Below, one piece after another: positions 44,782-59,321 of a stretch of 64,000 nucleotides of DNA. The notes beneath the pieces were generated by a model. The model made no database searches and was not told the origin of the DNA. It saw only the letters and a list, made by a program, of their open reading frames with translations. This DNA comes from Klebsiella phage vB_KpnP_PW7, in sequence record PQ409239.1; one strand, written 5' to 3'. Each line of letters starts with the position of its first letter. Within the stretch, counting starts at the first letter, position 1. A program made the position numbers and the translations under genes.

Positions 44782-45027
44782 ATGCAACCTGAAGAAAAGT
44801 TTACTGAGTATGTTGATGCTCTTGTAACTGTTGAATTAGCTTTAGCTATGGCACGTAAATACAAGGAACCAGTTAATAAGCCTGTTGCTCAGTGTGCTCG
44901 TTTAGTAGCAATGCGTTGCAAAGATTTAGCAAATCGTCAGCTCTTTCTTGGGGTTAGTAAAAGCGAGTGTCCCGGAGTGATGGTTAATATGATGCGAATC
45001 ACGTTTGACGAAATGATTAGCTCATAG
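44782..45027 (+). CDS. Hypothetical.
   Basis: 81-aa ORF. Confidence 0.35.
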   Translation: MQPEEKFTEYVDALVTVELALAMARKYKEPVNKPVAQCARLVAMRCKDLANRQLFLGVSKSECPGVMVNMMRITFDEMISS

Positions 45028-45031
45028 TATA

Positions 45032-45106
45032 AGTAGCTCATGGTGAGTTAGCTAATTGGTGAAGCGGCTGACTGTTAATCAGTGACAGAGTGGTTCGAGT
45101 CCACTA
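45032..45106 (+). tRNA. tRNA-Asn (GTT).
   Basis: Acceptor ggtgagt/actcacc; anticodon stem gctga/tcagt; loop ctGTTaa; T-arm agtgg-ttcgagt-ccact; CCA encoded. Confidence 0.7.
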
Positions 45107-45110
45107 CTCA

Positions 45111-45190
45111 CCGCCATATAGGGCAGTAGGCGATGTAGGGTTATGCGCCACGACACAGGTCGTGAACATCGGTTCGAGTCCGATACTGTC
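45111..45190 (+). tRNA. tRNA-like element, identity unresolved.
   Basis: Acceptor gggcagt/actgtcc and T-arm atcgg-ttcgagt-ccgat, but the anticodon arm folds with a 6-nt loop. Confidence 0.35.
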
Positions 45191-45200
45191 CACCACTATC

Positions 45201-45277
45201 GGAGTTTAGCTCAGTTTGGCAGAGCACCTGGTTTGGGACCAGGGGGTCGTAGGTTCAAGTCCTACAATTCCGACCAA
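45201..45277 (+). tRNA. tRNA-Pro (TGG).
   Basis: Acceptor cggagtt/aattccg; D gctc/gagc; anticodon stem cctgg/ccagg; loop ttTGGga; T-arm gtagg-ttcaagt-cctac; CCA. Confidence 0.75.
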
Positions 45278-45284
45278 ATTCTAT

Positions 45285-45361
45285 TGGGGTATCGCCAAGT
45301 TGGTTAAGGCATCGGACTTTGATTCCGACATTCGCAAGTTCGAATCTTGCTACCCCTGCCA
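45285..45361 (+). tRNA. tRNA-Gln (TTG).
   Basis: Anticodon stem tcgga/tccga; loop ctTTGat; T-arm gcaag-ttcgaat-cttgc; 1:72 T-T mismatch; CCA. Confidence 0.65.
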
Positions 45362-45373
45362 GTTTTATATAAA

Positions 45374-45449
45374 TTCCCCGTTAGGCTTAGTGGTAAGTGA
45401 CCCATAGCAGGCATGTTATGATACAGGTTCGACTCCTGTACGGGGAGCC
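45374..45449 (+). tRNA. tRNA-like element, anticodon unresolved.
   Basis: Acceptor tccccgt/acgggga and T-arm acagg-ttcgact-cctgt, but the D and anticodon arms are irregular. Confidence 0.35.
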
Positions 45450-45710
45450 AACATCCTATCAATGAGCACCTTTGATTGAGGTCGGAAGCTGAAATGATGC
45501 TTCTGTAAAATGAATCCACAGAGGGTGCTCTTTGATAGTTTTCGTGGGCGATTATGCGGTTTTTTAGAAACGAACCAATAACATAAATGCAAACGATGAT
45601 GTTGTTCTGATGGTTGCTTAATTGCATAACCATTAGTCAGGAGTGAGTCGTCCTGATTATCAAACGACCATGGAGTGTCCCCGTCCGTGTATTAGAAACG
45701 GGGAACCAAT

Positions 45711-45839
45711 ATTACTGGTTGCACGAGATGGCCTGGCATGTTCAGGTCAGGACTAAGTGTGACGCCGCTAGATTGGAGAACTGCTGCGGTAAGCTATAGA
45801 CTCCAACCGGAGGTTCGAATCCTTCACCAGTAACCATCT
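45711..45839 (+). tRNA. Long tRNA-like element (~129 nt); possibly a tRNA with an insertion.
   Basis: Acceptor tactggt/accagta and T-arm ggagg-ttcgaat-ccttc with CCA, but far too long for a standard tRNA. Confidence 0.25.
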
Positions 45840-45980
45840 AAAAGAGTGCTGAATGTCACGTTAGTGAATGGACAAGGTATCCTTGCAGTGCTCTTTTCGA
45901 TGGTGAGCCATCAAGTCCAGACGATATCTGAGTGACTTTAAAAACAGATGGAGCCAGGTGGAATCCCTGGCAATCAATTC

Positions 45981-46047
45981 CGGTGTAGGTACTAGCGTTG
46001 TGCACAAACGTGAATGTGTTGGTTCGAGTCCAACTGCCGGAACCAAT
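45981..46047 (+). tRNA. Short tRNA-like element.
   Basis: T-arm gttgg-ttcgagt-ccaac and acceptor tccggtg/tgccgga with CCA, but only ~67 nt. Confidence 0.25.
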
Positions 46048-46938
46048 TCGAGGTAGTGCTATGTGGTCTATGCCCTTTAACTAGGCGCATTGTAAATACA
46101 ACCCATGTAGTACTACCCCGAATTGGAAGAATTATGGTAGCTAGAAACATGAGTAACCGTTCGAATCCTTGGGATTAGTCGTCGGTGGAAAGTGTATATC
46201 GCTGTGGTGAGATTCCACGAGCTACCTGCAATATTATGGCAAGCATGGTTGAGTAGATGTGGTTCGACTCCACCCGGTGAGGTTCACCTTCACTAGCGTG
46301 ATTGGTTCACGAGAGACTTAGTACCGTAGGTTCAATTCCTACCCTTGCCACCTTACATTTGGGGTAAACGAGTGGTATCACAATACCATATCGAGCGTAA
46401 GTATCCAGGGAAGCTCTGGGACGCCCCCACCTTATTATGAACCAGTAAAGAAACAAGTCTGTTATTTCCCATTAACTAATTAATAGTTGAGAGAGAAATC
46501 GCCCTGGGGAGGGTTGTCGATAACGCTATATCGTAAGACTTGCTGGTAAGAATCCAGCATGGTTCACCTATTTGGGGTCGTAGCAAATCGGTTAAGCAAC
46601 TAGGACAGTAGTGCCTAGTGTGGGTAACACGTAGTCCCACCGACTCCACCATTTAACGCAGCAACATAGCCCTGATTGCATAGCACTCTAAAGACAATAC
46701 TGGTGAGGCAGTCCAGTAGCTGCTATCCTACTACCATACCCCCGACAAGGTGTATGTATGGAGAAGGGAACTCCTTAAATCCCAGCCTGAGCAAGTAGTT
46801 AAACGAGCTATCAACTCAATACTGAGCCAGCTAGTTAGGTATTAAACGGGTTTATGCTCCCGCATCGCAACCAAAACTAGCCTCTGAAAGGCAAGGGTTT
46901 AATGAAAGCAAGCCTCCCAGCTATGGGTAAATAGCACT

Positions 46939-46999
46939 AAGCCCCCTTTAGGAACGGATGGAGCCAATACCATCTCAAGCCGACAAGGGGGCTTTTTTA
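46939..46999 (+). terminator. Structured terminator closing the tRNA island.
   Basis: 10-bp stem aagccccctt / aagggggctt enclosing an inner hairpin (gatgg ... ccatc), then TTTTTT. Confidence 0.55.
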
Positions 47000-47029
47000 T
47001 TTGAAAGCGATAACCCACAGAGGAATACC

Positions 47030-47452
47030 ATGGACTTAGAACAAGAGATTCAAAACAAGGGTGCTAACGTAGCTCCCCGAATTACTCCTTCCCATATTGA
47101 AGACTGTATTGCCAGTGTTCATTTCTTCACAGCAGCAGATGGTGCGACAGCTGTTATGGGTGACAGCGATACCATTAGCAATGACAGCCTACAGTCACTT
47201 AAGCTGCTGACTATCTGCGTGATGGTTCTGAAAAACGGCTTTACTGTTGTTGGTAAGTCTGCCTGTGCATCCCCAGAGAACTACAATGCTGACATCGGTA
47301 AAGACGTTGCCTGGCGTGATGCCAAAGAACAGATTTGGCCACTTGAGGGCTATCTGCTGAAGCAGAATCTGTACGAGCAGAAGCAGAGCCAGGATATGCT
47401 GAAAGGCTTCCTGGAAGATGACAACTGTGATGGTGGGGGTTGTAAGATATGA
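47030..47452 (+). CDS. N4 gp49-family protein (Phage_gp49_66-like). Start adjusted to MDLEQEIQ.
   Basis: ITPSHIEDCIASVHFF ... ICVMVLKNGFTVVGKSACASPENYNADIGKDVAWRDAKEQIWPLEGY. The ORF-track start lies inside the upstream terminator. Confidence 0.5.
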   Translation: MDLEQEIQNKGANVAPRITPSHIEDCIASVHFFTAADGATAVMGDSDTISNDSLQSLKLLTICVMVLKNGFTVVGKSACASPENYNADIGKDVAWRDAKEQIWPLEGYLLKQNLYEQKQSQDMLKGFLEDDNCDGGGCKI

Positions 47453-48811: not shown

Positions 48812-48846
48812 AAGAAAAGCCCCTCTATTGAGGGGCTTATTTTTTA
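48812..48846. terminator. Bidirectional intrinsic terminator at the convergence of the middle genes and the vRNAP gene.
   Basis: AAAA agcccctc-tatt-gaggggct TTATTTTTT. Confidence 0.7.
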
Positions 48847-51800
48847 ATTTACCAGGTTATGCCATGGGTTAAGGCTAGGTGCTCGTAAGCCCTGACCAAA
48901 CCCGAAGGAATAATCCAGTCTGCCATCTGCCATCAGGCTAAACATGTTGTCCTGAATAGGCAGACCTACATTACCAAACATGGTAGGAGCAGGAACCACG
49001 GTAGCAATCAGCGAGTGCACTGGGTTGTTACGAATCATGGATACTGCAACCTTAGCTGAACGAATCTTAAAGTTGTAGAACCACATAAGACCCATGCTTT
49101 CCATATAACCACGGAAACGACCAGGTAGACGGTCATAGTTAACAAACTCTTCCGTAACACGACCAAGTGCTTCTGCTTTGCCCATCTTCTTACGCTTAGT
49201 CAGGTCATCATAGATGATTGCTTTAGCGATAAAGTCAGAGTACTCAACAGTTTTCTGAATACCTTGGAACAGTGCAGTATCCTTGGTAATGAGTGCGTAA
49301 CGACCAGCAGTACGTAAACCTTTAGGCAGCTTGTTAGCCAGCTGGTCAATGTACTGGTGCAGCTTACCTTCGGTAATGAGAATCTCATCACGACCGATAC
49401 CAGAGTCAGCGATAGAAGAGAACTCACCACGTTCAATCAGAGGCCAAATCGACATACGCTTGTGGCTGTCAGTAATAGACTGAATCTCAGCTTCAAGCTT
49501 ACGTGACTGGTTCGGATTGGTAGAGGCACGTAATTCCGCTTCTGCTTCAATCTGACGAATACGGCTTTTAAGATACTGGTTAATCTCACTGGTTTTACGA
49601 GGAAGGTTAACAGCAATATCCTTAACCGGTACACCACGACCAATCATCTGATAGATGTTAGCCAGGAAGTTAACAGCAGGAACCACCATAGACTTAACAA
49701 CAATCAGAGTCTTGGCATCCTTAACAGCACTCTGAATAGTATTCTCAGCATTCATCATGTAACGGTAAGCTTTGTTACCGAATGCACCAATGAACATCTT
49801 CTTAACGGTGTCCAGAGTTTCATCATTCCAACGACTATTACCAGTCCATGCATCACCTACAGAAGCAGAGCGATAACCGAATGCATCATTTAGCATGTCA
49901 CGGCGTACCCACAACTGATTCTCACCAAAGAGACTTTCAGCCTTTTTACGAGTCTCAAGGTTCATCAGCTTAACAGCATCAGACAATACAGCATCGTTAG
50001 TCTGGCCAAATACATTGACGTACTGAGACTGGTTAGAAGAAGACTCTTTCAGGTCAGCTTCATACATGTCATGCAGACGTTCAATGAGTGCATCGTTGTA
50101 AGCCTGTGCTTTAGCCTCTTCTACCTGACGACCACGCCATACGCCAACCATCTTAGCGAAGTGGTTATCCTGGTTCAGATGCTTAAGCATATCCGGGTTA
50201 ACAGAACGCTCATACGCTACCACCATGCCCTTATCATCGTAGATTGGTAACAGAGGCTCATCACCACGCTCACCACGTGCCATAGCCTTCTGGATGCGTT
50301 TTACAGTGTGCATATCTGTAATACGCCCAGCTACCATAGTGTTCATGGTGAAGCCAGTTCCTACGTCTACTCCATTAGCAGTGTCACGAACGTTTTGCAG
50401 GATACCCTGACTAAACGGAGCACGTGCAGCCACAGGACTGAAGTAGTAACCACGGCTGGCTTTATTAGTGTCAGCTGAGGAACCAGTGTAAGTACCTACA
50501 CGAACGTAGGAACGCTCATTGAGTAACCCAAAGTCACCATCTTCAGCTACGATGAGGTTAACGCCCTGTTGCTGCATAGTAGGGATGTAACCTTTGTAGC
50601 TGTTCAGTTTGGTACGTGGGTCACTGTTAGCCTTACGTACTTCTTCCACACGCTGGCCTACCATGTAAGACAGAGAGAAATCCATACCTTCAACTTCGCT
50701 TTGAGCCAGGGAAGAGAGAATATCCCGGTCAGCCTTGTTCATGGTTTCCAGTGCATAGAGAGTAATCAGCTTATCCAGTGCAGCTACATCTACAGTTGAT
50801 TTAGCAGCAGTACGTTCACCGAGCAAACGACTAATAGCGTATGCGTTACGGAGTAAGTTATTACCTACCACACCGGTAATCATGTACTTAGCTAACTGCT
50901 TAGACTTACGTTCAATGAGTCCCCAGTTACGACCAGCTTGGGCAGACAAGCTTGCTTCCAGCTTATTGATTTCTGCATCAACAAGTTTGCTGTCAGACAG
51001 CAGGTCACGGATATCACCCATGCTCATGGTTTCACGCAAAACAGCAAGGTCAGTTTTACCCAAACCAGTGTGCATTGCTCCCCACTCTTCTTTGCTGAGT
51101 TCACGGGTAAACTTCTCAGCAATAATAGTTGGAAGGTTTTCACGGAACTGCTGACGGTCTTGTTGAATCTGAGAACGAACAGCTTTAATCATGTCGTAGA
51201 CATTAGCGTTAGTCTTAGTACGACCAACAATATCGTTAACCAGGTCATGGAAAGGTTTCCATACTTTACCCTGGTTCATAGCAGCCATCACACCCTGTGC
51301 AACCTTCTCCCCGTTCTTCTCTGTGGCAACAGCAGCAACAAGCTGTGCAGCATGTGCAGTAGCTTTGACCAGTGGATTACTGGTATTAGCTGCCACATCA
51401 CGAGCACGGTCCAGAGTAGCATCAGCCAGACGCTCTACCCCATCAATCACATACTGATTAGCACGGTCAATCATACTGCCAGTAGGGTTAGCTACTGAGT
51501 CATAGAACGACTCACGGTTAAGAGAAGCTTCCGTTATACGGTTAGTCAGTGCATCAATGCTTTCTTGTACATTCTGAGACTTATTATCACCAGCCAGACG
51601 AGTATTAAGGGATTCCATTGCCTGAGTACCAGCATTGGTCAGGATATTGTCCAGAGTGTTATTCAGTTTAAGGTCAGCTTTAGGTACAGGCATCTTTTCC
51701 AATACAGCACGGAATTCATCGTTAACCATAGCCAGCCCCATGAACACAGGCAGCAGAGTAGAACGACCTTGTTTATCAGTACCAGCAATATTGGTACCAA

Positions 51801-54800
51801 GTACAGTGTTGAACTTCTCCTGTGCATAGTAACGGTCAGCCGGGTCAGTGCTATCTGGATTACTCATAAAGTCTTCCACCTTCAGGTTTTTAGACACATG
51901 AGCAAACAGCTCCTGAGCACGTGACATAGCTAATGAGTCAATCTGTGCTTCAGTAGCCATAGCAGCTACAACCATCTGGAACACTGACTGTTCTTGCATG
52001 GTCATAGGGAAACCATGAGCCTGTACAGAACGAGTCATACTGGTAGCCAGCATCAGTGCATCTTGCACCTTACCTTTACGCTCAATCTGGTCAACTGGGC
52101 TAACACGCAAGTAGTTAGTAACCAGGTTATCAAACGTTTTGTTCAGCTCAGTAAGACGGTCATTGTTACCGTAGGTAGTGTTATGGAACAGGGTACCATC
52201 GGTAGCAGTAGCCTGAGTTGTAGGCTGACTACGCATAAGTACAGCACTGTTAAACAGCAGATTGCTAAACATGTCATCTGCTACTTTCGGTGCAACCTTA
52301 CGCCCCCAAATCAGTTTCTTAATTGCTGCATAAACGTCTTTAGCAATTCGAACCACGGAAAGGGTTGTCTTCTGTTTCATAGTCAGAGCACGGTTAGTCA
52401 AACCCCATGCCATGAACTCGTTAACAGCAGCAGCCTTAGCTAAACCTGGTTCTACAAAACCGTTATTAAGATGTCCGTCAATGGTATACAAGGCATCTTC
52501 ATAGGCATCACGCATTGCTGGATTTTCCCGTGACATATCCAGATTACGGAATTGCTCCATAAGTTGCTCAATGTTTTCCACAGCATCTTTAACAGTTGGG
52601 TCAGAATTCTCGTTGCTATAATGAGCAAGCACTTTTTCAAACGTAGCAGCGTGAACCAACTCATGAACAAGAGTTTCCATTGATGGACTAACCAGATAAA
52701 TAGTCTGGTCATCAAAGTTAGTCCAACCATGGATATCACCTTCTTGAGCAGCTTCCATTTCCTGAGAAGACAATTCAGTCAGGTTCTTCTCTTTGGCGTA
52801 TGCAGACAACTGAGCAGGTGTACCGTAGATAACCTTATAGTCTTTAGCTGATAGAGACTTTTGAATCTCGTTAAGGACAGCAGACTGTTCAGCAGTCATC
52901 TTCATAGCTTTAGCCAAATTGCTAATAGCTGTGTTAGATAGAATACGTACACCAGTCTTATGAGCACGGCCTACAGTATCAAAGCCTACCTCTGGTTTAG
53001 CCTTAACAGGTTTGGTAGCAGATTTGCGAGACTGAAGCTCTTCGTCAAACAGACGGTTGAGTTCAGCTACTTGCTCATCAACAGTCATGTTACTCAGGTC
53101 AATCTTCCCTTGGTTCACATAAGGAGCACCAACAGCAGCCATCTGGTCAACAGTGGTCTGTACCTTATCCATTATCTTGTGGCGAATATCTACACCCAGG
53201 GCAATATTACGAAGGTTACGTTCGATTTGTGCACTAGCAGCCTGAATATCATCAATGGTTGCTTTTTCACGTTCTGTGAATTCCAGAGCAGACGCTTTAA
53301 TTGCATCAATTGCTTCTGGAGACAGCTCGTTAAAGTCAACGTTCTTCATGAACTTAGCGAAAGAGTCATAAACGTTTTTAATTGGGTTGCCTTGCCAAGA
53401 GGTGTATACAGCCTCGTTAGCTTTACGGGAAGCATCCTCAATATCGTTCAGACCAATGTTCATACCATCAAAGATTTTCAGAGTGTTCTTTGGTGCACCC
53501 TTCATAGTAGACAGGGTCTGCATCATCATCCCATCACCAGTACCAATGGTCATGAATGGGATACCAGCAACGCCAGCCTGAGAAGGTGCGTAGATGCTCA
53601 TAGGAACACGCATACGGTCATCGAGATTAGTAGCCAAAACTTGGTTAGCCACTTCACTGTTTTCTGAACCAGCAATATAGAAAGTCTGGGAACCAGTCTC
53701 AATCATTGGGGCCAGATTGTTCAGTGATGCCTGAATGTCGTTAAGTTCTTTCTGAGTAAGGAAATCACCCTTCTTCCATGTTGGGTCTTTTTCTTTTTCC
53801 AGAAGCTTTGCTTGAACACGCTGTTTGAACAGGTCTTCCAGTACCACAGACTGAATCTGAGTAGCCTTCTGAAGTTGTTCAGTAGAGAACATCAGACCTT
53901 GCCCAACAGTCTGGCTAATACCTTCTCTCATTGGTTCAACGAAGAAGTGCAGCATGTTTTCCTGCAAGGCTTTAAGTTGCTCACCCTGTACAGTGAATTT
54001 TTGTGGGTTCAGTTTACCCTTCATGCCTGGACCTGCTTCTTCAATCTGAAGAACGTTCTTACGCTTAACAGGGATAGCAGAAGTAAGTGCATCCATATCA
54101 GCAAGAAAACGCTTAAGCATTTGTTCAGCATGCTCTTCAGAAGCAGCCTGTTTACCGAACATTGCCATAGCAGCAGATACATTAGGATTGTTGGCACGTG
54201 CCTGGAGAACGTCAGACATACGCTCATAGATAGCATCAGTAATTGCACTAACCATCTTCCCTGCAATACCACGAGCACCGGAACCATAGATGGTAATGGT
54301 CAGTGGATTCTTAGCAATACCACGCTTAAGCTCAAGGGTACCGTCCTCACGCAAAGTAAGGTCAGGCAGGAACAAATCCATCAGTGAAGTCAGATGATTC
54401 ATCTGAGTACTGATAGAAGGGTTACTAGCATAGCTATTACGCAGAGCAGTAAGAGATGCTTTCAGTGCATTAGTAGAGGCTTCATAAAGGTCTACGCTGT
54501 CATCAATAGAACGATGTTCGTTCATTGTCTTACCAGCTTTACCGAAGAATAAACCACCCTTAGCAACGTTAGTCAGCCACTCTTTAGAAAACTTACCACC
54601 AGTCATCAATACCATTGCGTTGATAGGGCCGTTAGTAACACCGTCAGCTTCTACATACAGTGGAGTATTGAATGCTGATTTATCCTCTGCATTCAAATAA
54701 CGGGCATATTCCATCAGAGCCATGAGGGCTACGAAAGACTTATCACCACCCAGTGCAGTATTCAGGATTTCAACGGAGTTATCTGGTAAGGAACCAGTCT

Positions 54801-57800
54801 TGTTGAAATCAACCATCATATCTACAGCAGGTTTCAGTTTAACCTCCAGAGCAGCAGTCAGCTTCTGTGCCATGGCATCCCGACTCATGTTATGAACCTT
54901 AATACCAAGTGCCTGAGCCAGCCCTAACTGGAATGCTGAGAAGTCAGCAGAGTTCTGAGAAGACAAGTCCAGAGTAGCTTTAGTAGGCAGAATAGCCTCA
55001 CGAACCAGTTTGGCTGATTGTGGGTTGTACTTACCTAACATCTGCATACGCCCAACACGGGTCATGTTGTAACCGTAGTGGATTGGAACCTCTGAGATAT
55101 TCTCAGACTGAGCACGTACCTGGTTAATAACGTTAAACAGATGGTCATAAGATGCAGCTACGGAAAGGTTTTTACCTTCCATAGAACGAGCAGTGTTTAC
55201 GTTAAGCAGTTCAGGATTAACGGTACCAGCACCTAACAGAGCAAGGATGTTGTCACGTCCCATGGCTTCATAGAAGTTAACCATTGGCTCATGTACAAAG
55301 AACTCAGTCTCTTGTTCTGCTTTAAGGGCTTTACGCTGTTCGGGAGTATTCTGCACAGCTGGGTTACGTAACTGATTACGAGGCACAGCAGGTATATCAT
55401 CACCAAAGTAAATCTTCTCTTCTGGTTCTACCAATACAGCTTCTTCAATAGCAGTAGGGAACTTATTGATTGGGTCGGCTTCATCCAGTTTAGAGATAGA
55501 GTACAGACCAACAGTCTTATTGTTGTCCGGGTCAAACTCATTCATGTTGATGATGGTTTCTGTAACGTCACCAGACTCAACAAAAGCAGCCAGCATTTCA
55601 GCAGCCATAGCAGCAGGAATACCTTTAGTGTAACCCAGTGGTGCATTAGGGTTACGCTCTAATCCCCAGTAAGACTCAATCTTTTGAGCCAAGGAGTTAG
55701 TAGCTTCAACCAGAGTCATACCATTTTCAAAGGTTTCAACGAGGCCATCCGGTAACAGGGATTGGTCCATACCGGTAATAGCAGCTACGTCTTTAGCATC
55801 TTTGATGGCAGAGTTCTGTACAGCAGTGAGTCGCCATTGCAGACCAGCAAGTACAGCAGTCTGTAGCAGTTCCTCATTGTATTTGAAGGTATCACCATCT
55901 TGCTCAACGATGTTAAGCAGCTTACCACCTACCCAACGGTTAGCTTCTGTACCCTCAGCAAAACGCTTACCAACGTTCTTGTTAGAGAGGAATTTCTCCA
56001 TACGATTACGCAGTAAATCAGCAATACCCTCACCATGTTTCATCAGGTCACTGTAGCGTTTAGCCACATCACTGGTGAATGCTGGGTTAGCTTCGTCCTG
56101 ATTTACGTATACTTCGTAACGAGCACGAGAAGACAGTGCCTTAGTCAGGTCACTCAGTGGGGACTCAGAGCCTACGGTACGAGACTTAGGTTCTGCTGGT
56201 ACGTTGAAAGACTTAACAAAGTAGTTGGTAACCTTCTCTGAGGAATACAGATTAGGGTACACAGCAGCAGTACCTTCTTTATTTTCAGTAGGTTGAGTGG
56301 TGGTATCCTCATTAGCGAGGGTAGCATCAGATTCAGCAGGTTCTACCTTTTCAGGTGTAGTCTTAGTTACTTTCTCTTCTTGTACGCTAACCTCTTTAAC
56401 AGGAGTAGTATTTTCTACCACTGGTTCTGTTACAGTAGGTTTGGCCTCCTGAGTTTGTGCAGGAGATTCTTTAACCTGATTCACCGGTTGGGCAGTCTGT
56501 TGAGATGAGGCAGCGTCACGATTGCTTTGACGGAAAGCCTTAACCACCTGAGCAGCTGTATCGTTCAGACGTGAATCCAAAGAGGTAACTTCGATATGAG
56601 GAACTTTCAGCTCCGGGTAAGCCGAGGCGAGAGCATTGGCAATATCGCCTACGGTTTTAGCTTCAAGCCCTACCTGTTGGGCAAACTTAACAGACTTGGT
56701 ATCGTAGGGATTGACACCAAGACCGGTACGACTACGAACCCATTCACGGGAGGGCGTGAGAGCCTGATAATGGACAGACTTATTCTTATCCGCATTCCCA
56801 GAAACAAGATGCTCGTTCAACGCTCCAACCTTATTGCTCATGTGCTGGGCGAATTGCATAAAGTCGTTGAGGTAAGCGGCGGCGAGGTCGAGGTTACCAG
56901 AGTTATACGCAGACCGAATACGCTGAGCATGCTGCAACGCAGAGTACTGACCTTCCTCCGTTCTACTCTCATCGGTTTTAATCTGCTTACCCACAATGTC
57001 TTGAGGGCGAAGACCTAAGCGTTCAGCTTCGGTATCGAACTCACGAGCACCTTTCAAGAGGGCAGCAGCAGTAGTTAATGCAGCCCTCTGACGGTTATTC
57101 AGCTGAATACGACCTTCACTAGCATGTTTAAGAACCATGTCCACTGATTCAGGGGAAAGTTTTTCAGGAGCAACCTGTGCAGCCATTGCTACGTTATTAA
57201 CTTCCTGCTGAGTAGGATTCTCACCAACTTCCAGTTTGCCTTGTTCTGCTGCCTCAGTAACCATACGGTTAATAGCACGGAAAGCACGAGCAACCTTTGG
57301 AGTATTCTGAATGTTGGCGATAAGGCCAGAGTACTGGTCAAGTACAGCATTAGCTGGTGAGTCGCTAGGCAGGTTATTCAGAGCAGCCGGGTCACGGTTT
57401 ACAAACTCTTCAAAGCCCATTACCCCATCATACAGATAAGAGGCAGCAGTCATCAGTGCCTGTGGGTCAGTCTCTTCTGTAGAGTTAACCAGGTCTGCTA
57501 ATTTCTGAATAGCTTCTACACGGTTAGTGGAACCAGTGACAGCAGCTTTAACTGCATCTGGTGCATCAGCATATTCAGCTTCATCAAAACGAGTAGCATT
57601 AACCAGGTCAGAAGCATAACGGTAAGCAGCTTCTTTCTGTTCCGGGGTAGCATCAGTTTCGTTAACAGCAGTGTACAGTGTCTCTTCTGCATTAGCAGCC
57701 TGTGCTGTGGCTTCCTGTGCAGCAGCCTGAACGGTTTCGTCAGCTACAGGGGATGCTTGTTCGTTCTGTTGCATTACTCGCTCACCACGGGCTACCAGAG

Positions 57801-59256
57801 CGTCACGCAGTGGTTTAGTAGCAGCAGACCCAACATTACCTACAGCACGCAAACCAGCCATAGTAGTACGAATGGCAGGAGACAGAGCAGCACCCACAGC
57901 CTTACCAGCAGCACCAGGAGCTTGTACAACCCCAGCAGCACCAAAGCCATAGAGAGCACCCAAGCCAAGCTGTTCACCAACACCTTTAGCCAGGTCTTGG
58001 TTTTTATCGATGTTCTGCTTTTGTGCAATGTTTTGAGACAGTTGACCAGTGGCACCTTGAATACCCTCTTCAATAGTCTCACGACCCATGTTGCTAACTG
58101 CTGAACCAAGGGAACCTACACGCATTGGAGCCGTCTCAAAACGAGATACCAATGGGCCAGTAGCAGCAGCAATAGGGAATTGAATAGCAGCAGCATCAAT
58201 ACCAGTTTCAGATGCAGTCTGACGACGTGCTTCATCAGGAGACATACCATCAGCAATGTGCTGTTGGTATACAGGAGATTTAACTAGCAGTTCCTGGTGA
58301 GGCATCTTAAGGATGTCACTGGCAGTCTGTTGGTAGACACCACCAGCTTCCATTGCACCAATACCTAGCATGCCAGGTGCAACACGACCCGCTTTATCCA
58401 GAGCAGCAACACCAATACGAGCCAGTGAGTTAGTACCACTAGCAGCATCGATTGCAGCAGCTACACGAGCACCCTGTACAGCACGAGTACCAGTAACTAC
58501 TTTACCAAGGGCATTGATACCTTTAATGATTGGGCCAGCAGCAAACAGGGAACCTACACCTTCAGCCAGACCATCAGTTAAAGCAGTACCGTCTTGCATG
58601 ACGTTACCAACAGAATCCAGTGCATCACGCCCAACAAGAGACAGTGCAGCAATGGTAGGGTTAGTACCATCTTTAATATCTTGTTTGTACTGGTTCTCGT
58701 TTTCCAGTGCAGTAATCTGACCCTGAGAAGCAACGACCTTACGGCGAGCATTCAAAGCATCACTCTGTGTAGAGTGTACCCAATCACCCAGGTTACCTAG
58801 TTGCTCGGATGCCCAAGCACCAGCATTATCGTTGACCAAGCCTGCCCCAAGAGCAGCAATACCCCCAAGGGTATTACCAAGACCAAGAGCAACACCAGAA
58901 GCAGTGTCAATGGCTCCACGCCCCGGAGTACGTTCAATAGTCTTATCACGGTATACCTGGTCAGCAGCATTAGCCCTCTGATTAATAAGTTGAGTACCTT
59001 GTTCGATACCATACTTATTAATGAGTTCTAATGGGGAAAGGTTAGTAAAGTCGGATGCAATAGAACCTTGCTCAAAGGCACCAGTTCCTAGATTTCCAAC
59101 GCGTCCAGCCTGAAGCTGGTAGGCGTTATCTTGAGAGATAGGAGTAGGGATGATACCTTGCTCTGCCTTCTTCTGGTCGGTTGCAGTAGAGACGCTAACT
59201 TGCTTGGCATTGGTTACGCTGTCTGCAAACCCAGCCAGTCTGTCAAATGTTGACAT
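48844..59256 (-). CDS. Virion-encapsidated RNA polymerase (N4 gp50-like), about 3470 aa.
   Basis: N4 vRNAP is 3500 aa. T7-like motifs sit in the central region (TIYGSGARGIAGKM motif-B-like; DGVTNG and FDGMNIG Asp motifs). It is the last gene of the minus-strand late block. The ORF-track start is a TTG; the start was moved to ATG (MSTFDRLAGF) with an aggaaa RBS. Confidence 0.8.
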   Translation of the reverse strand: MSTFDRLAGFADSVTNAKQVSVSTATDQKKAEQGIIPTPISQDNAYQLQAGRVGNLGTGAFEQGSIASDFTNLSPLELINKYGIEQGTQLINQRANAADQVYRDKTIERTPGRGAIDTASGVALGLGNTLGGIAALGAGLVNDNAGAWASEQLGNLGDWVHSTQSDALNARRKVVASQGQITALENENQYKQDIKDGTNPTIAALSLVGRDALDSVGNVMQDGTALTDGLAEGVGSLFAAGPIIKGINALGKVVTGTRAVQGARVAAAIDAASGTNSLARIGVAALDKAGRVAPGMLGIGAMEAGGVYQQTASDILKMPHQELLVKSPVYQQHIADGMSPDEARRQTASETGIDAAAIQFPIAAATGPLVSRFETAPMRVGSLGSAVSNMGRETIEEGIQGATGQLSQNIAQKQNIDKNQDLAKGVGEQLGLGALYGFGAAGVVQAPGAAGKAVGAALSPAIRTTMAGLRAVGNVGSAATKPLRDALVARGERVMQQNEQASPVADETVQAAAQEATAQAANAEETLYTAVNETDATPEQKEAAYRYASDLVNATRFDEAEYADAPDAVKAAVTGSTNRVEAIQKLADLVNSTEETDPQALMTAASYLYDGVMGFEEFVNRDPAALNNLPSDSPANAVLDQYSGLIANIQNTPKVARAFRAINRMVTEAAEQGKLEVGENPTQQEVNNVAMAAQVAPEKLSPESVDMVLKHASEGRIQLNNRQRAALTTAAALLKGAREFDTEAERLGLRPQDIVGKQIKTDESRTEEGQYSALQHAQRIRSAYNSGNLDLAAAYLNDFMQFAQHMSNKVGALNEHLVSGNADKNKSVHYQALTPSREWVRSRTGLGVNPYDTKSVKFAQQVGLEAKTVGDIANALASAYPELKVPHIEVTSLDSRLNDTAAQVVKAFRQSNRDAASSQQTAQPVNQVKESPAQTQEAKPTVTEPVVENTTPVKEVSVQEEKVTKTTPEKVEPAESDATLANEDTTTQPTENKEGTAAVYPNLYSSEKVTNYFVKSFNVPAEPKSRTVGSESPLSDLTKALSSRARYEVYVNQDEANPAFTSDVAKRYSDLMKHGEGIADLLRNRMEKFLSNKNVGKRFAEGTEANRWVGGKLLNIVEQDGDTFKYNEELLQTAVLAGLQWRLTAVQNSAIKDAKDVAAITGMDQSLLPDGLVETFENGMTLVEATNSLAQKIESYWGLERNPNAPLGYTKGIPAAMAAEMLAAFVESGDVTETIINMNEFDPDNNKTVGLYSISKLDEADPINKFPTAIEEAVLVEPEEKIYFGDDIPAVPRNQLRNPAVQNTPEQRKALKAEQETEFFVHEPMVNFYEAMGRDNILALLGAGTVNPELLNVNTARSMEGKNLSVAASYDHLFNVINQVRAQSENISEVPIHYGYNMTRVGRMQMLGKYNPQSAKLVREAILPTKATLDLSSQNSADFSAFQLGLAQALGIKVHNMSRDAMAQKLTAALEVKLKPAVDMMVDFNKTGSLPDNSVEILNTALGGDKSFVALMALMEYARYLNAEDKSAFNTPLYVEADGVTNGPINAMVLMTGGKFSKEWLTNVAKGGLFFGKAGKTMNEHRSIDDSVDLYEASTNALKASLTALRNSYASNPSISTQMNHLTSLMDLFLPDLTLREDGTLELKRGIAKNPLTITIYGSGARGIAGKMVSAITDAIYERMSDVLQARANNPNVSAAMAMFGKQAASEEHAEQMLKRFLADMDALTSAIPVKRKNVLQIEEAGPGMKGKLNPQKFTVQGEQLKALQENMLHFFVEPMREGISQTVGQGLMFSTEQLQKATQIQSVVLEDLFKQRVQAKLLEKEKDPTWKKGDFLTQKELNDIQASLNNLAPMIETGSQTFYIAGSENSEVANQVLATNLDDRMRVPMSIYAPSQAGVAGIPFMTIGTGDGMMMQTLSTMKGAPKNTLKIFDGMNIGLNDIEDASRKANEAVYTSWQGNPIKNVYDSFAKFMKNVDFNELSPEAIDAIKASALEFTEREKATIDDIQAASAQIERNLRNIALGVDIRHKIMDKVQTTVDQMAAVGAPYVNQGKIDLSNMTVDEQVAELNRLFDEELQSRKSATKPVKAKPEVGFDTVGRAHKTGVRILSNTAISNLAKAMKMTAEQSAVLNEIQKSLSAKDYKVIYGTPAQLSAYAKEKNLTELSSQEMEAAQEGDIHGWTNFDDQTIYLVSPSMETLVHELVHAATFEKVLAHYSNENSDPTVKDAVENIEQLMEQFRNLDMSRENPAMRDAYEDALYTIDGHLNNGFVEPGLAKAAAVNEFMAWGLTNRALTMKQKTTLSVVRIAKDVYAAIKKLIWGRKVAPKVADDMFSNLLFNSAVLMRSQPTTQATATDGTLFHNTTYGNNDRLTELNKTFDNLVTNYLRVSPVDQIERKGKVQDALMLATSMTRSVQAHGFPMTMQEQSVFQMVVAAMATEAQIDSLAMSRAQELFAHVSKNLKVEDFMSNPDSTDPADRYYAQEKFNTVLGTNIAGTDKQGRSTLLPVFMGLAMVNDEFRAVLEKMPVPKADLKLNNTLDNILTNAGTQAMESLNTRLAGDNKSQNVQESIDALTNRITEASLNRESFYDSVANPTGSMIDRANQYVIDGVERLADATLDRARDVAANTSNPLVKATAHAAQLVAAVATEKNGEKVAQGVMAAMNQGKVWKPFHDLVNDIVGRTKTNANVYDMIKAVRSQIQQDRQQFRENLPTIIAEKFTRELSKEEWGAMHTGLGKTDLAVLRETMSMGDIRDLLSDSKLVDAEINKLEASLSAQAGRNWGLIERKSKQLAKYMITGVVGNNLLRNAYAISRLLGERTAAKSTVDVAALDKLITLYALETMNKADRDILSSLAQSEVEGMDFSLSYMVGQRVEEVRKANSDPRTKLNSYKGYIPTMQQQGVNLIVAEDGDFGLLNERSYVRVGTYTGSSADTNKASRGYYFSPVAARAPFSQGILQNVRDTANGVDVGTGFTMNTMVAGRITDMHTVKRIQKAMARGERGDEPLLPIYDDKGMVVAYERSVNPDMLKHLNQDNHFAKMVGVWRGRQVEEAKAQAYNDALIERLHDMYEADLKESSSNQSQYVNVFGQTNDAVLSDAVKLMNLETRKKAESLFGENQLWVRRDMLNDAFGYRSASVGDAWTGNSRWNDETLDTVKKMFIGAFGNKAYRYMMNAENTIQSAVKDAKTLIVVKSMVVPAVNFLANIYQMIGRGVPVKDIAVNLPRKTSEINQYLKSRIRQIEAEAELRASTNPNQSRKLEAEIQSITDSHKRMSIWPLIERGEFSSIADSGIGRDEILITEGKLHQYIDQLANKLPKGLRTAGRYALITKDTALFQGIQKTVEYSDFIAKAIIYDDLTKRKKMGKAEALGRVTEEFVNYDRLPGRFRGYMESMGLMWFYNFKIRSAKVAVSMIRNNPVHSLIATVVPAPTMFGNVGLPIQDNMFSLMADGRLDYSFGFGQGLRAPSLNPWHNLVN

Positions 59257-59321
59257 GGTAGGTTTCCTATTCAAACTTATATCTATTAGAGAACACACTA
59301 TATACAAAGTGTGAGCGAGAA

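Follow-up and report, generated by a model that had tools for sequence, protein, structure and literature searches.

A tmRNA-type messenger module in the tRNA island of Klebsiella phage vB_KpnP_PW7, possibly one part of a split phage tmRNA

Transfer-messenger RNA (tmRNA) has so far been treated as an indivisible molecule, tRNA and mRNA in one, and phage copies of it have been thought rare. The one-piece form (ssrA, RF00023) is carried by bacterial chromosomes. In the genes for the two-piece permuted tmRNAs (alpha- and beta-proteobacteria, cyanobacteria; RF04321, RF01850; marine phages), the order is acceptor piece, intervening segment, coding piece, and the coding piece has at its start the 5' acceptor strand, which pairs with the 3' end of the acceptor piece. 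Phage-borne ssrA-type genes, including partial ones, have also been catalogued (PMC4131195, PMC9004378): a 2014 census of RefSeq viruses, which may not have included P1, found phage ssrA only in mycobacteriophages (Bxz1 and others) and Bacillus phage G (PMC4131195), and a 2021 survey with ARAGORN reported tmRNAs in 402 phage genomes, or 2.3% of phage genomes (PMC9004378). These catalogued tmRNAs are complete or consist of the tRNA domain only, and they are detectable by standard tools. Here we describe the opposite case, a messenger and pseudoknot part only, in the tRNA island (positions 45030-47000) of a window of 64,000 nt from Klebsiella phage vB_KpnP_PW7 (PQ409239.1). This tmRNA-type messenger module of ~170 nt (45537-45703) lies between the first of the island's long hairpins (hairpin 1) and a tRNA-like unit of 124 nt (Table 1). 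The first-pass annotation of the island had read the stretch from hairpin 1 to the end of that unit as spacer and an odd tRNA; it holds instead a tag template with three pseudoknots. No description of a phage tmRNA-like element of this kind was found in the literature that we searched (on phage tmRNA, N4-like phages, and P1).

The module shares with ssrA a GCA resume codon, U and A at positions -5 and -4, a stop codon in helix 5, pseudoknots both before and after the frame, and a 10-residue tag that starts with AND or ANE and has a small hydrophobic end (ANDENYALAA in Escherichia coli). There is also an 8-nt identity, GCAAACGA, between the module and E. coli ssrA. In vB_KpnP_PW7 the frame opens with the resume codon, has neither a start codon nor a Shine-Dalgarno sequence, and carries U at -5 and A at -4; the first, PK1-like pseudoknot ends 6 nt ahead of the alanine codon. 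A 12-mer in the loop of PK1 (GCGAUUAUGCGG, 45548-45559) pairs, in a register that we infer for this phage, with CC..AUAA/CAUAA shortly before the resume codon. The UAA stop (45619-45621) falls in the loop of a helix-5-like hairpin, an arrangement that recurs in other families with an outer CUGA/UCAG and an inner GGC/GCC pairing, and two further pseudoknots, PK2 and PK3, follow. Differences from ssrA are equally plain: the module is without a 5' acceptor strand, a P2 helix, and an attached T arm, acceptor, and CCA, and no PK4 was found in it. An alternative frame that begins with AUG (AUG CAA ACG AUG...) was rejected, given that its length is not conserved and its AUG is missing in 3M and VLCpiS13a.

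A scan of IMG/VR and of BLAST-matched records with a degenerate pattern yielded 106 homologous loci (77 distinct modules), and the frame is intact in 106/106, always with ten codons and a stop (UAA, once UAG). Among the 77 distinct modules there are 30 nucleotide versions of the frame encoding 19 peptides, and all tags fit A-N-[D/E]-x-x-x-x-x-[A/V]-[A/P]. The variable sites of the frame are distributed 6/5/10 over codon positions 1/2/3, the last tag codon is GCU, GCC, or GCG, and the other two reading frames are not conserved. The reading frame of E. coli tmRNA is set by U85/A86, at -5/-4 (PMC2481249), and UA occupies the same two positions (AUAAAU or GUAAAU directly before GCA) in 76/77 distinct modules. 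As judged from these sequences, the coding-type constraint argues for translation of the module over an untranslated antagonist.

The secondary structure was evaluated with 35 diverse modules and the six helices of PK1-PK3, in comparison with column shuffles and with partners slid out of register. Paired cells amount to 85.8% (78.0% in shuffles), and changes on both sides affect 90 cells, against 31 in shuffles. Covariation scores 0.220, as compared with 0.108 in shuffles, none of which (0/500) was as high, and the score falls to 0.04-0.09, at most 0.086, when the partners are slid by 1-3 columns. Helices 1 and 2, which form PK1, are paired in 92% and 85% of cases and have the topology of E. 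coli PK1, with support mostly from invariant pairs, while helices 3 and 4, which form PK2, show changes on both sides at 4/6 and 4/4 pairs. Compensatory series were identified for stem 1 of PK2 (ACGGGG/CCCCGU, GCAAGG/CCUUGU, GUGAGG/CCUCAU, UCAGGA/UCCUGA), stem 2 of PK2 (GUCG/CGAC, CCGA/UCGG, CCAG/CUGG, CCAA/UUGG), and stem 2 of PK3 (CGCAC/GUGUG, CGCAG/CUGUG, CAUGG/CCGUG, CGUGG/CCAUG). The covariation supports the pseudoknots of the module.

The source phage is a KP8-like, N4-type podophage by comparison of its island with Klebsiella phage KP8 (Schitoviridae, Kaypoctavirus), which matches 45030-47000 with 88% coverage and 93.7% identity; parts of the island also occur in G7C-like coliphages (Gamaleyavirus) and N4. 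The module itself is more widespread. A distant BLAST search with 45536-45712 matches 279 phage records from Schitoviridae, Ackermannviridae, phage 7-11 (Grimontviridae), Sashavirus, and others, both lytic and temperate, including ~47 kb siphophages of E. coli, Salmonella, and Klebsiella, and the module is the only part common to all these families (N4 has the island without the module). The annotation under the match is mostly no feature, with an overlapping hypothetical protein in a few records and a tmRNA in none. Phage P1 itself (NC_005856) carries the module, which starts where the annotated 'dicF-like region' (68791-68892) ends, the terminator of that region directly preceding the UUUUCGU of the module. 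There it follows the C1-controlled ban promoters and precedes trnA and trnT; as part of the leader of the ban operon, which C1 represses, the module is expected to show early expression upon induction. P1-type phage-plasmids with the module (tag ANDDLMMVAA) are present in 561/5,426 complete E. coli genomes. In species-representative bacterial genomes the module core was found in only 4/185,579, and we therefore consider the module to be an element of phages and phage-plasmids, in contrast to the chromosomal ssrA, and not a host gene. One of these four matches lies on a contig of 5.9 kb from a metagenome bin labelled 'Bacillota'; given that the module there is of the enterobacterial type, this contig is probably phage DNA placed in the wrong bin. 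In this family, then, even in the textbook phage P1, a messenger and pseudoknot part is under coding-type selection without an attached alanine-type tRNA domain, which bears on the question of how far the tRNA domain is needed for frame selection and template loading. The long 'tRNA islands' that stand unannotated in N4-like phages are also explained in part by the module.

With permissive settings, Rfam models recognize the module as tmRNA_permuted (28.9 bits, 45534-45621) and tmRNA (20 bits, 45535-45826), both below threshold, and five unrelated phage loci have a sub-threshold match to tmRNA_permuted or beta_tmRNA at the homologous place. The families of permuted tmRNA are the best-scoring ones for the module (22.8-31.9 bits). 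In relaxed mode, ARAGORN detects a 'resume consensus' and this tag at the module. A covariance model constructed from the phage modules gives 153-182 bits on the P1, Pantoea, Pseudocitrobacter, and Escherichia loci; its best match outside the family, a weak one at 9.7 bits (E = 0.24 in 97 kb), is the collinear region of host ssrA (nt 80-151).

On balance, we favor the interpretation that the island is a tRNA-punctuated stable-RNA operon with a rearranged or split phage tmRNA, in which the tag module and the tRNA-like RNAs are separate molecules. The island would be transcribed as one RNA from the + strand, ended by the terminator at 46939-46999, and host tRNA-maturation enzymes would cut it at the tRNA-shaped units, with RNase P generating the 5' ends and 3' trimming proceeding to the encoded CCA; the long hairpins may be duplex processing or end-protecting signals, possibly for RNase III. 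The expected products would be three decoding tRNAs, several conserved non-decoding tRNA-like RNAs, and a messenger-half RNA of ~170 nt. The module would serve as a phage-borne trans-translation template onto which stalled ribosomes are switched, and a phage-specified tag would replace the host ANDENYALAA. Together with a separate CCA-ending tRNA-like RNA, for which the 124-nt unit is the candidate in this phage, the module would constitute a split, rearranged tmRNA. This shares with the permuted tmRNAs the idea of separate coding and acceptor pieces cut from one precursor, but here the module comes first and has no acceptor strand, and the units downstream are self-contained, with both acceptor strands. 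If this interpretation holds, phage interference with ribosome rescue or protein tagging would be common in Enterobacterales and overlooked by annotation.

The 124-nt unit follows the module after 9 nt. It had been described in the first pass as a 129-nt tRNA, and while an abnormal tRNA-shaped unit is indeed present, its length is corrected here. Seven variants of the unit are available, with compensatory changes at three acceptor positions (UACUGGU/ACCAGUA, UACCAGU/ACUGGUA, UAUCAGU/ACUGAUA), covariation in the T stem (GGAGG/CCUUC vs. GGGGG/CCCUC) and in the inner hairpin, and an encoded ACCA in 6/7. The unit includes GGACUAAGUGUGAC, which is near the tmRNA consensus GACUAAGCAUGUAG, and an H-type pseudoknot with invariant stems (CCGC/GCGG with UUGGAG/CUCCAA) is predicted before the T arm. 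In an Rfam search with the unit alone, only its T arm matches. Other families have self-contained 3' domains after the module, for example GUUGUGGUG-hairpin-variable-GCCGGAGAUCAGCACCGGC-CACCACAAC, and two variants of these contain GACUGACUAAG, which is identical to host tmRNA. In several loci the conserved 3' domain downstream of the module takes the form GUUGUGGUG-AAUGCGCAGGCUGAUGCGC-variable-GCCGGAG(A/U)UCAGCACCGGC-C(A/G)CCACAA(C/U), always followed by ...R-CCA-CAA; from its sequence, a tRNA-like domain or a microhelix ending in CCA is possible.

Several observations weigh against a split tmRNA. All Rfam scores of the module (20-31.9 bits) are below the gathering threshold of 47, and default ARAGORN reports a tmRNA in 0/127 loci, for which reasons the family is invisible to standard tools. 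No tRNA-like domain joined to the module in the standard or a known permuted way was found, nor, in 16 loci, a CCA-ending strand complementary to the 5' end of the module within 2.5 kb on either side. In the siphophages HC6, VLCpiS13a, and a related contig, a sigma-70-like promoter (TTGACA-17-TAnnnT) has its predicted start between AGAUAG and UUUUCG, with no space for a 5' acceptor strand. RNase P would also be expected to sever a downstream tRNA-like domain from the module. The 124-nt unit is without the G3:U70 pair (C3:G70 or U3:A70 instead), occurs only in KP8-like and G7C-like phages, and is separated from the module by two other units in ECBP1. Constructs in standard tmRNA order (an acceptor strand, then the module, then the 3' part of the 124-nt unit) are recognized by ARAGORN only at -ps85. 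Finally, a canonical tRNA is found within 2 kb of the module in 42-47/86 loci, by which the proposition that the module always stands beside canonical tRNAs is rejected.

Other candidates for an acceptor domain were also considered. A permuted tmRNA formed by the tRNA-shaped unit E5 and hairpin 1 was rejected, being reported by ARAGORN only at -ps80/-ps90, with implausible domains and beside spurious calls; E5 has both acceptor strands, and the 5' strand of hairpin 1 is neither preceded by a T arm nor followed by CCA. A search for tRNA shapes with G3:U70 and NCCA near the modules of all loci gave convincing results only in this window and KP8, where the two such units of the window (E2 and E13) have no link to the module and are absent from other families. 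In P1, the recurrent G3:U70 match is judged spurious because of its three G.U pairs and its overlap with the dicF-like region's terminator.

The main rival interpretation, which we regard as rather unlikely, is that the module is untranslated and acts as a tRNA-domain-less mimic or antagonist that would bind host tmRNA or its factors (ribosomal protein S1, RNase R) and thereby block or divert trans-translation. Such a role would agree with the absence of an attached tRNA-like domain, and with the complementarity of the nearly invariant 12-mer of PK1 (GCGACUUUGCGG) to CCGCAA[AAAAU]AGUCGC of host tmRNA, a segment (E. coli ssrA nt 74-91) that comprises the 3' strand of host PK1 and extends into the resume codon; the C of UGCGG is mismatched with the module's own partner strand in every variant and would pair with a host G. 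There is also a precedent, the tRNA-domain-only copy in mycobacteriophage DS6A, which is thought to inhibit (PMC4131195). This complementarity is a post hoc observation, however, for which the module's own PK1 and shared ancestry with host PK1 are equally good explanations, and in global duplex energy with host tmRNA the module does not surpass shuffled modules. Furthermore, a mimic offers no reason for a fixed frame of ten codons, synonymous last alanine codons, a kept stop, and the kept U-5/A-4.

A further interpretation retains translation of the tag and dispenses with classical trans-translation: the module may piggy-back on host alanyl-tmRNA via the 12-mer, or PK1 may set GCA in a vacant ribosome, and the outcome would be either phage-specified tagging that needs no phage tRNA domain or else an ssrA-like decapeptide in free form. 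A pseudoknot that places a codon directly in the ribosome is known from the intergenic internal ribosome entry site of dicistroviruses. The distance of PK1 from the alanine codon, the complementarity of the 12-mer to the host resume region, and the presence of the module alone in all families are in keeping with this idea, but the pairing statistic is post hoc, and we know of no PK1-like direct-loading or piggy-back mechanism in bacteria for a natural RNA; we therefore consider it a quite improbable account. Its most general form, likewise a long shot, is that many enterobacterial phage families (N4-like phages, P1, Ackermannviridae, 7-11, and T1-sized siphophages) carry a tRNA-domain-less messenger half that captures host alanyl-tmRNA/SmpB via the 12-mer, or whose PK1 loads GCA, and that rewrites or shuts down tagging. 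Capture of host tmRNA or direct loading of GCA would, if true, represent a new way of using trans-translation.

Very improbable is the remaining view that there is no tmRNA component, the hairpins being RNase sites or small RNAs, the odd units interrupted or decaying tRNAs, and the frame a coincidence or a dead ssrA relic: although units are gained, lost, and swapped among close relatives (E8, E13, and hairpin interiors), Rfam and default ARAGORN call no tmRNA, and ssrA fragments from imprecise excision are known in prophages (PMC9004378), the module is found in unrelated lytic and temperate families with every frame intact and covarying pseudoknots, corresponds to the tag region of ssrA rather than to its 3' end, the part used as an attachment site, and is almost absent from bacterial chromosomes, and the comparable abnormal units keep their helices by compensatory change.

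Table 1. Structured RNA features and tag frame of the vB_KpnP_PW7 island (window positions).
Feature	Coordinates	Strand	Description and basis
tRNA-Asn (GTT), canonical	45042-45116	+	ARAGORN; Rfam tRNA 58.5 bits
E2, tRNA-shaped	45121-45195	+	Acceptor GGGCAGU/ACUGUCC, G3:U70, A73, encoded CCA
tRNA-Pro (TGG), canonical	45200-45276	+	ARAGORN; Rfam 66.1 bits
tRNA-Gln (TTG), canonical	45285-45361	+	ARAGORN; Rfam 61.5 bits; U1.U72 mismatch, G73
E5, tRNA-shaped	45375-45450	+	Acceptor UCCCCGU/ACGGGGA, G73-CCA, normal T arm; relaxed ARAGORN
Hairpin 1	45456-45538	+	Arms 45456-45470 and 45524-45538, 15 nt, 93% complementary, then UUUU; repeat I4
PK1-like pseudoknot	45537-45586	+	Stem AGUUU(U)C 45537-45543 with GAAAC 45567-45571; RNAalifold helix
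Tag frame	45589-45621	+	GCA AAC GAU GAU GUU GUU CUG AUG GUU GCU UAA = ANDDVVLMVA and stop; preceded by AUAAAU
Helix-5-like hairpin	45607-45636	+	CUGAUGGUU 45607-45615 with AACCAUUAG 45628-45636; read from sequence
PK2, H-type	45637-45668	+	Stem UCAGGA/UCCUGA; loop GUCG 45647-45650 with CGAC 45665-45668
PK3, H-type	45669-45703	+	Stem CCCCGU/ACGGGG; upstream CAUGG 45669-45673 with loop CCGUG 45685-45689
124-nt tRNA-like RNA	45713-45836	+	Acceptor UACUGGU/ACCAGUA, A73-CCA, normal T arm, inner hairpin
Hairpin 2	45833-45905	+	Arms 45833-45851 and 45886-45904, 19 nt, 84% complementary; repeat I2
Cys-like unit, D-arm-less	about 45978-46045	+	Hairpin loop GUGCAC, GCA 'anticodon', ACCA
Hairpin 3	46043-46126	+	24-nt arms 46043-46066 and 46103-46126; repeat I1
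E8, tRNA-shaped	46136-46229	+	GGUAGCU/AGCUACC; read from sequence
Two T-arm units	46238-46352	+	46276-46350 = D-arm-less tRNA shape ending ACC; ARAGORN intron mode
E13, tRNA-shaped	46574-46652	+	Acceptor GGGGUCG/CGACUCC, G3:U70, A73-CCA; G3:U70 scan
Intrinsic terminator	46939-46999	+	Stem 46939-46948 and 46985-46994, 10/10 pairs and T-run; repeat I18, terminator scan

Besides its three canonical tRNAs, the island has at least seven units that are tRNA-shaped but abnormal in the middle, together with three long hairpins of very high stability and a terminator at its end. The two long hairpins described in the first pass are both real, with somewhat shifted coordinates, and a third had not been listed; the 15-bp stem of hairpin 1 with its following TTTT and the 10-bp stem of the terminator are as described. 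In comparison with dinucleotide shuffles, the stability of the fold corresponds to z = -5.1 (hairpin 1), -6.1 (hairpin 2), -8.25 (hairpin 3), and -4.7 (terminator), and 0/200 shuffles fold as well as any of these. Hairpin 1 starts 5 nt beyond a CCA, and its 3' strand, which adjoins the module, extends to the module's first base; its stem (CUAUCAAUGAGCACC/GGUGCUCUUUGAUAG) is conserved and its interior variable. In KP8 and ECBP1 this stem has changed from GAGCAC/GUGCUC to GAGUAC/GUACUC, with pairing kept and the interior replaced. Hairpin 2 has the stem core AAGAGUGCUG/CAGUGCUCUU with one conserved mismatch, and the changes in KP8 keep its pairing; its 5' strand begins within the ACCA of the 124-nt RNA, as that of hairpin 3 begins within the CCA of the preceding Cys-like unit. 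Among relatives, the hairpin stems are kept by compensatory or wobble changes and the interiors are swapped wholesale. Stems of this family (GGUAAGAGCAUUG/CAGUGCUCUUUCC; one mismatch is fixed) are found before or after the module in distant phage families, and some relatives of the hairpin stems enclose a T-arm-like hairpin, giving a tRNA shape with a very long acceptor stem. As structured RNA that flanks CCA ends, the hairpins fit the role of putative RNase processing sites that had been suggested for them. The short motifs that had been noted as recurring do recur without being significant in number: ATAGCACT has 7 copies in the window (3.0 expected), a number reached in 7/100 shuffles, and GTGCTCTTT, with up to one mismatch, has 24 (18.7 expected). 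The core shared by the hairpins becomes meaningful only by comparison with other phages.

Long imperfect duplexes between units, with a conserved mismatch and a conserved stem, are reminiscent of the RNase III hairpins in the early RNA of phage T7, which differ in that some relatives of the island hairpins enclose T-arm-like hairpins. The tRNA cluster of phage T4 includes two stable non-tRNA RNAs (species 1 and 2), and mitochondrial transcripts are described by the 'tRNA punctuation' model; the proposed island operon resembles these in having one transcript, extra stable RNAs with tRNA-like ends, and tRNA-processing enzymes. T4 species 1 and 2 are not tmRNA-like, however, and no sequence relationship between them and the island was found.

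By default ARAGORN and a scan with Rfam gathering scores, the standard tRNAs of the island are tRNA-Asn, tRNA-Pro, and tRNA-Gln only, the same three that the first-pass annotation had recognized as clean cloverleafs. It had also remarked on the first acceptor pair of tRNA-Gln, which the Rfam alignment flags as non-standard. A weak 1:72 pair and G73 are recognition elements for GlnRS, and the mismatch is therefore not alarming. The abnormal units were not rescued as standard tRNAs by covariance models, and ARAGORN recovered E5 (relaxed) and 46276-46350 (intron mode) as abnormal units. E2, E5, the 124-nt unit, E7, and E13 fail the criteria for a canonical elongator tRNA (7-nt anticodon loop, D arm, standard T loop, and Rfam score of at least 29 bits), with loops of 6 nt in E2 and E5, a pseudoknot in the 124-nt unit, 7 nt without a D arm in E7, and 9 nt in E13. 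A T-arm motif (GGTTCGANTCC) with acceptor strand and CCA occurs six times (repeat family D1).

The unit reported in the first pass to have a 6-nt anticodon loop corresponds to E2 (loop CACAGG), which ARAGORN calls tRNA-??? with a 2-base anticodon; its minimum-energy fold is a cloverleaf, it was also recovered by the G3:U70 scan, and it is identical in KP8, where it is annotated as tRNA-OTHER. E5 is a second such unit, its anticodon arm tipped by the 6-nt loop AGGCAU, which recurs on a different stem in ECBP1 and phage 7-11; in KP8 it is annotated as tRNA-Leu. E13 has a 9-nt anticodon-type loop, an 11-nt T-type loop, and a cloverleaf-like minimum-energy fold (z = -2.3). KP8 has unrelated sequence at the E13 site, again with G3:U70 and sharing the motif GGCAUGUUAU with E5, and E8 is absent from KP8 (an indel in the pairwise alignment); whole tRNA-shaped units are thus gained or exchanged between close relatives. 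By established rule, G3:U70 suffices for recognition by AlaRS, and E2 and E13, which carry the alanine-acceptor signature of G3:U70, A73, and CCA, should therefore accept alanine.

The 67-nt tRNA of the first pass is confirmed as the D-arm-less Cys-like unit. Together with a 72-nt leader (45906-45977), this tRNA shape forms one conserved unit (45906-46045, + strand), which is present in N4 and in G7C-like and KP8-like phages and is annotated as tRNA-OTHER in KP8. Compensatory changes are found across phages in both its T stem and its anticodon-like stem. In the anticodon-like hairpin (about 45995-46012) the palindromic loop GUGCAC is constant, while the stem changes from CGUU/AACG to UGUC/GGCA; being self-complementary, the loop could allow kissing dimers. 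The leader module (GUCCAGACGAUAUCUGAGUGACUUUAAAAACAGAUGGAGCCAGGUGGAAUCCCUGGC) has no Rfam match, and its first ~60-70 nt (about 45909-45975) are also present in the unrelated phages Shigella pSb-1, DS8, Salmonella 9NA, and Klebsiella SopranoGao and in several ~40-kb Klebsiella phages. The earlier suggestion of degenerate tRNAs disagrees with the comparable units (the 124-nt and Cys-like units), since their helices are kept by compensatory changes in other phages. These non-decoding tRNA shapes are under structural selection and are, therefore, products in their own right. The conserved shapes are candidate decoys or regulators of tRNA-directed host functions, and two of the island's units have the alanine-acceptor signature.

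Of the two T-arm units, 46276-46350 scores 21.6 bits with the Rfam tRNA model (threshold 29), and the hairpin CGUGA/UCACG in 46238-46352 becomes CGUGC/GCACG in G7C-like phages. A compact element follows at 46360-46432 (GGGGU-AA-(hairpin)-GCGU-AAGUA-(hairpin)-ACGCCCCC-ACC) and recurs in ECBP1 with a UACCA end; by appearance, it is a further structured RNA of the CCA type. A conserved 'tail' at 46653-46760 (AACAUAGYCCUGAUUGCAUAGCACUCUAAAGACAAYACUGGURAGRCAGUCCAGU...) is common to N4, G7C-like, and KP8-like phages and includes one of the ATAGCACT copies noticed in the first pass.

The island is located between small genes of the + strand, the upstream one ending at 45027 and the next starting near 47030. 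No open reading frame longer than 63 amino acids lies wholly within 45030-46950; the longest that overlaps the island (109 amino acids, minus strand, 45304-45633) crosses tRNAs and the module. No sigma-70-like promoter was found on the + strand of the island. The publication on KP8 lists six tRNA genes, four of them identified, and says nothing more on them (PMC6950046). Just downstream of the island, the minus strand has an open reading frame of 3,487 amino acids (48844-59307). By its position and size, this frame is the putative N4-type virion RNA polymerase.

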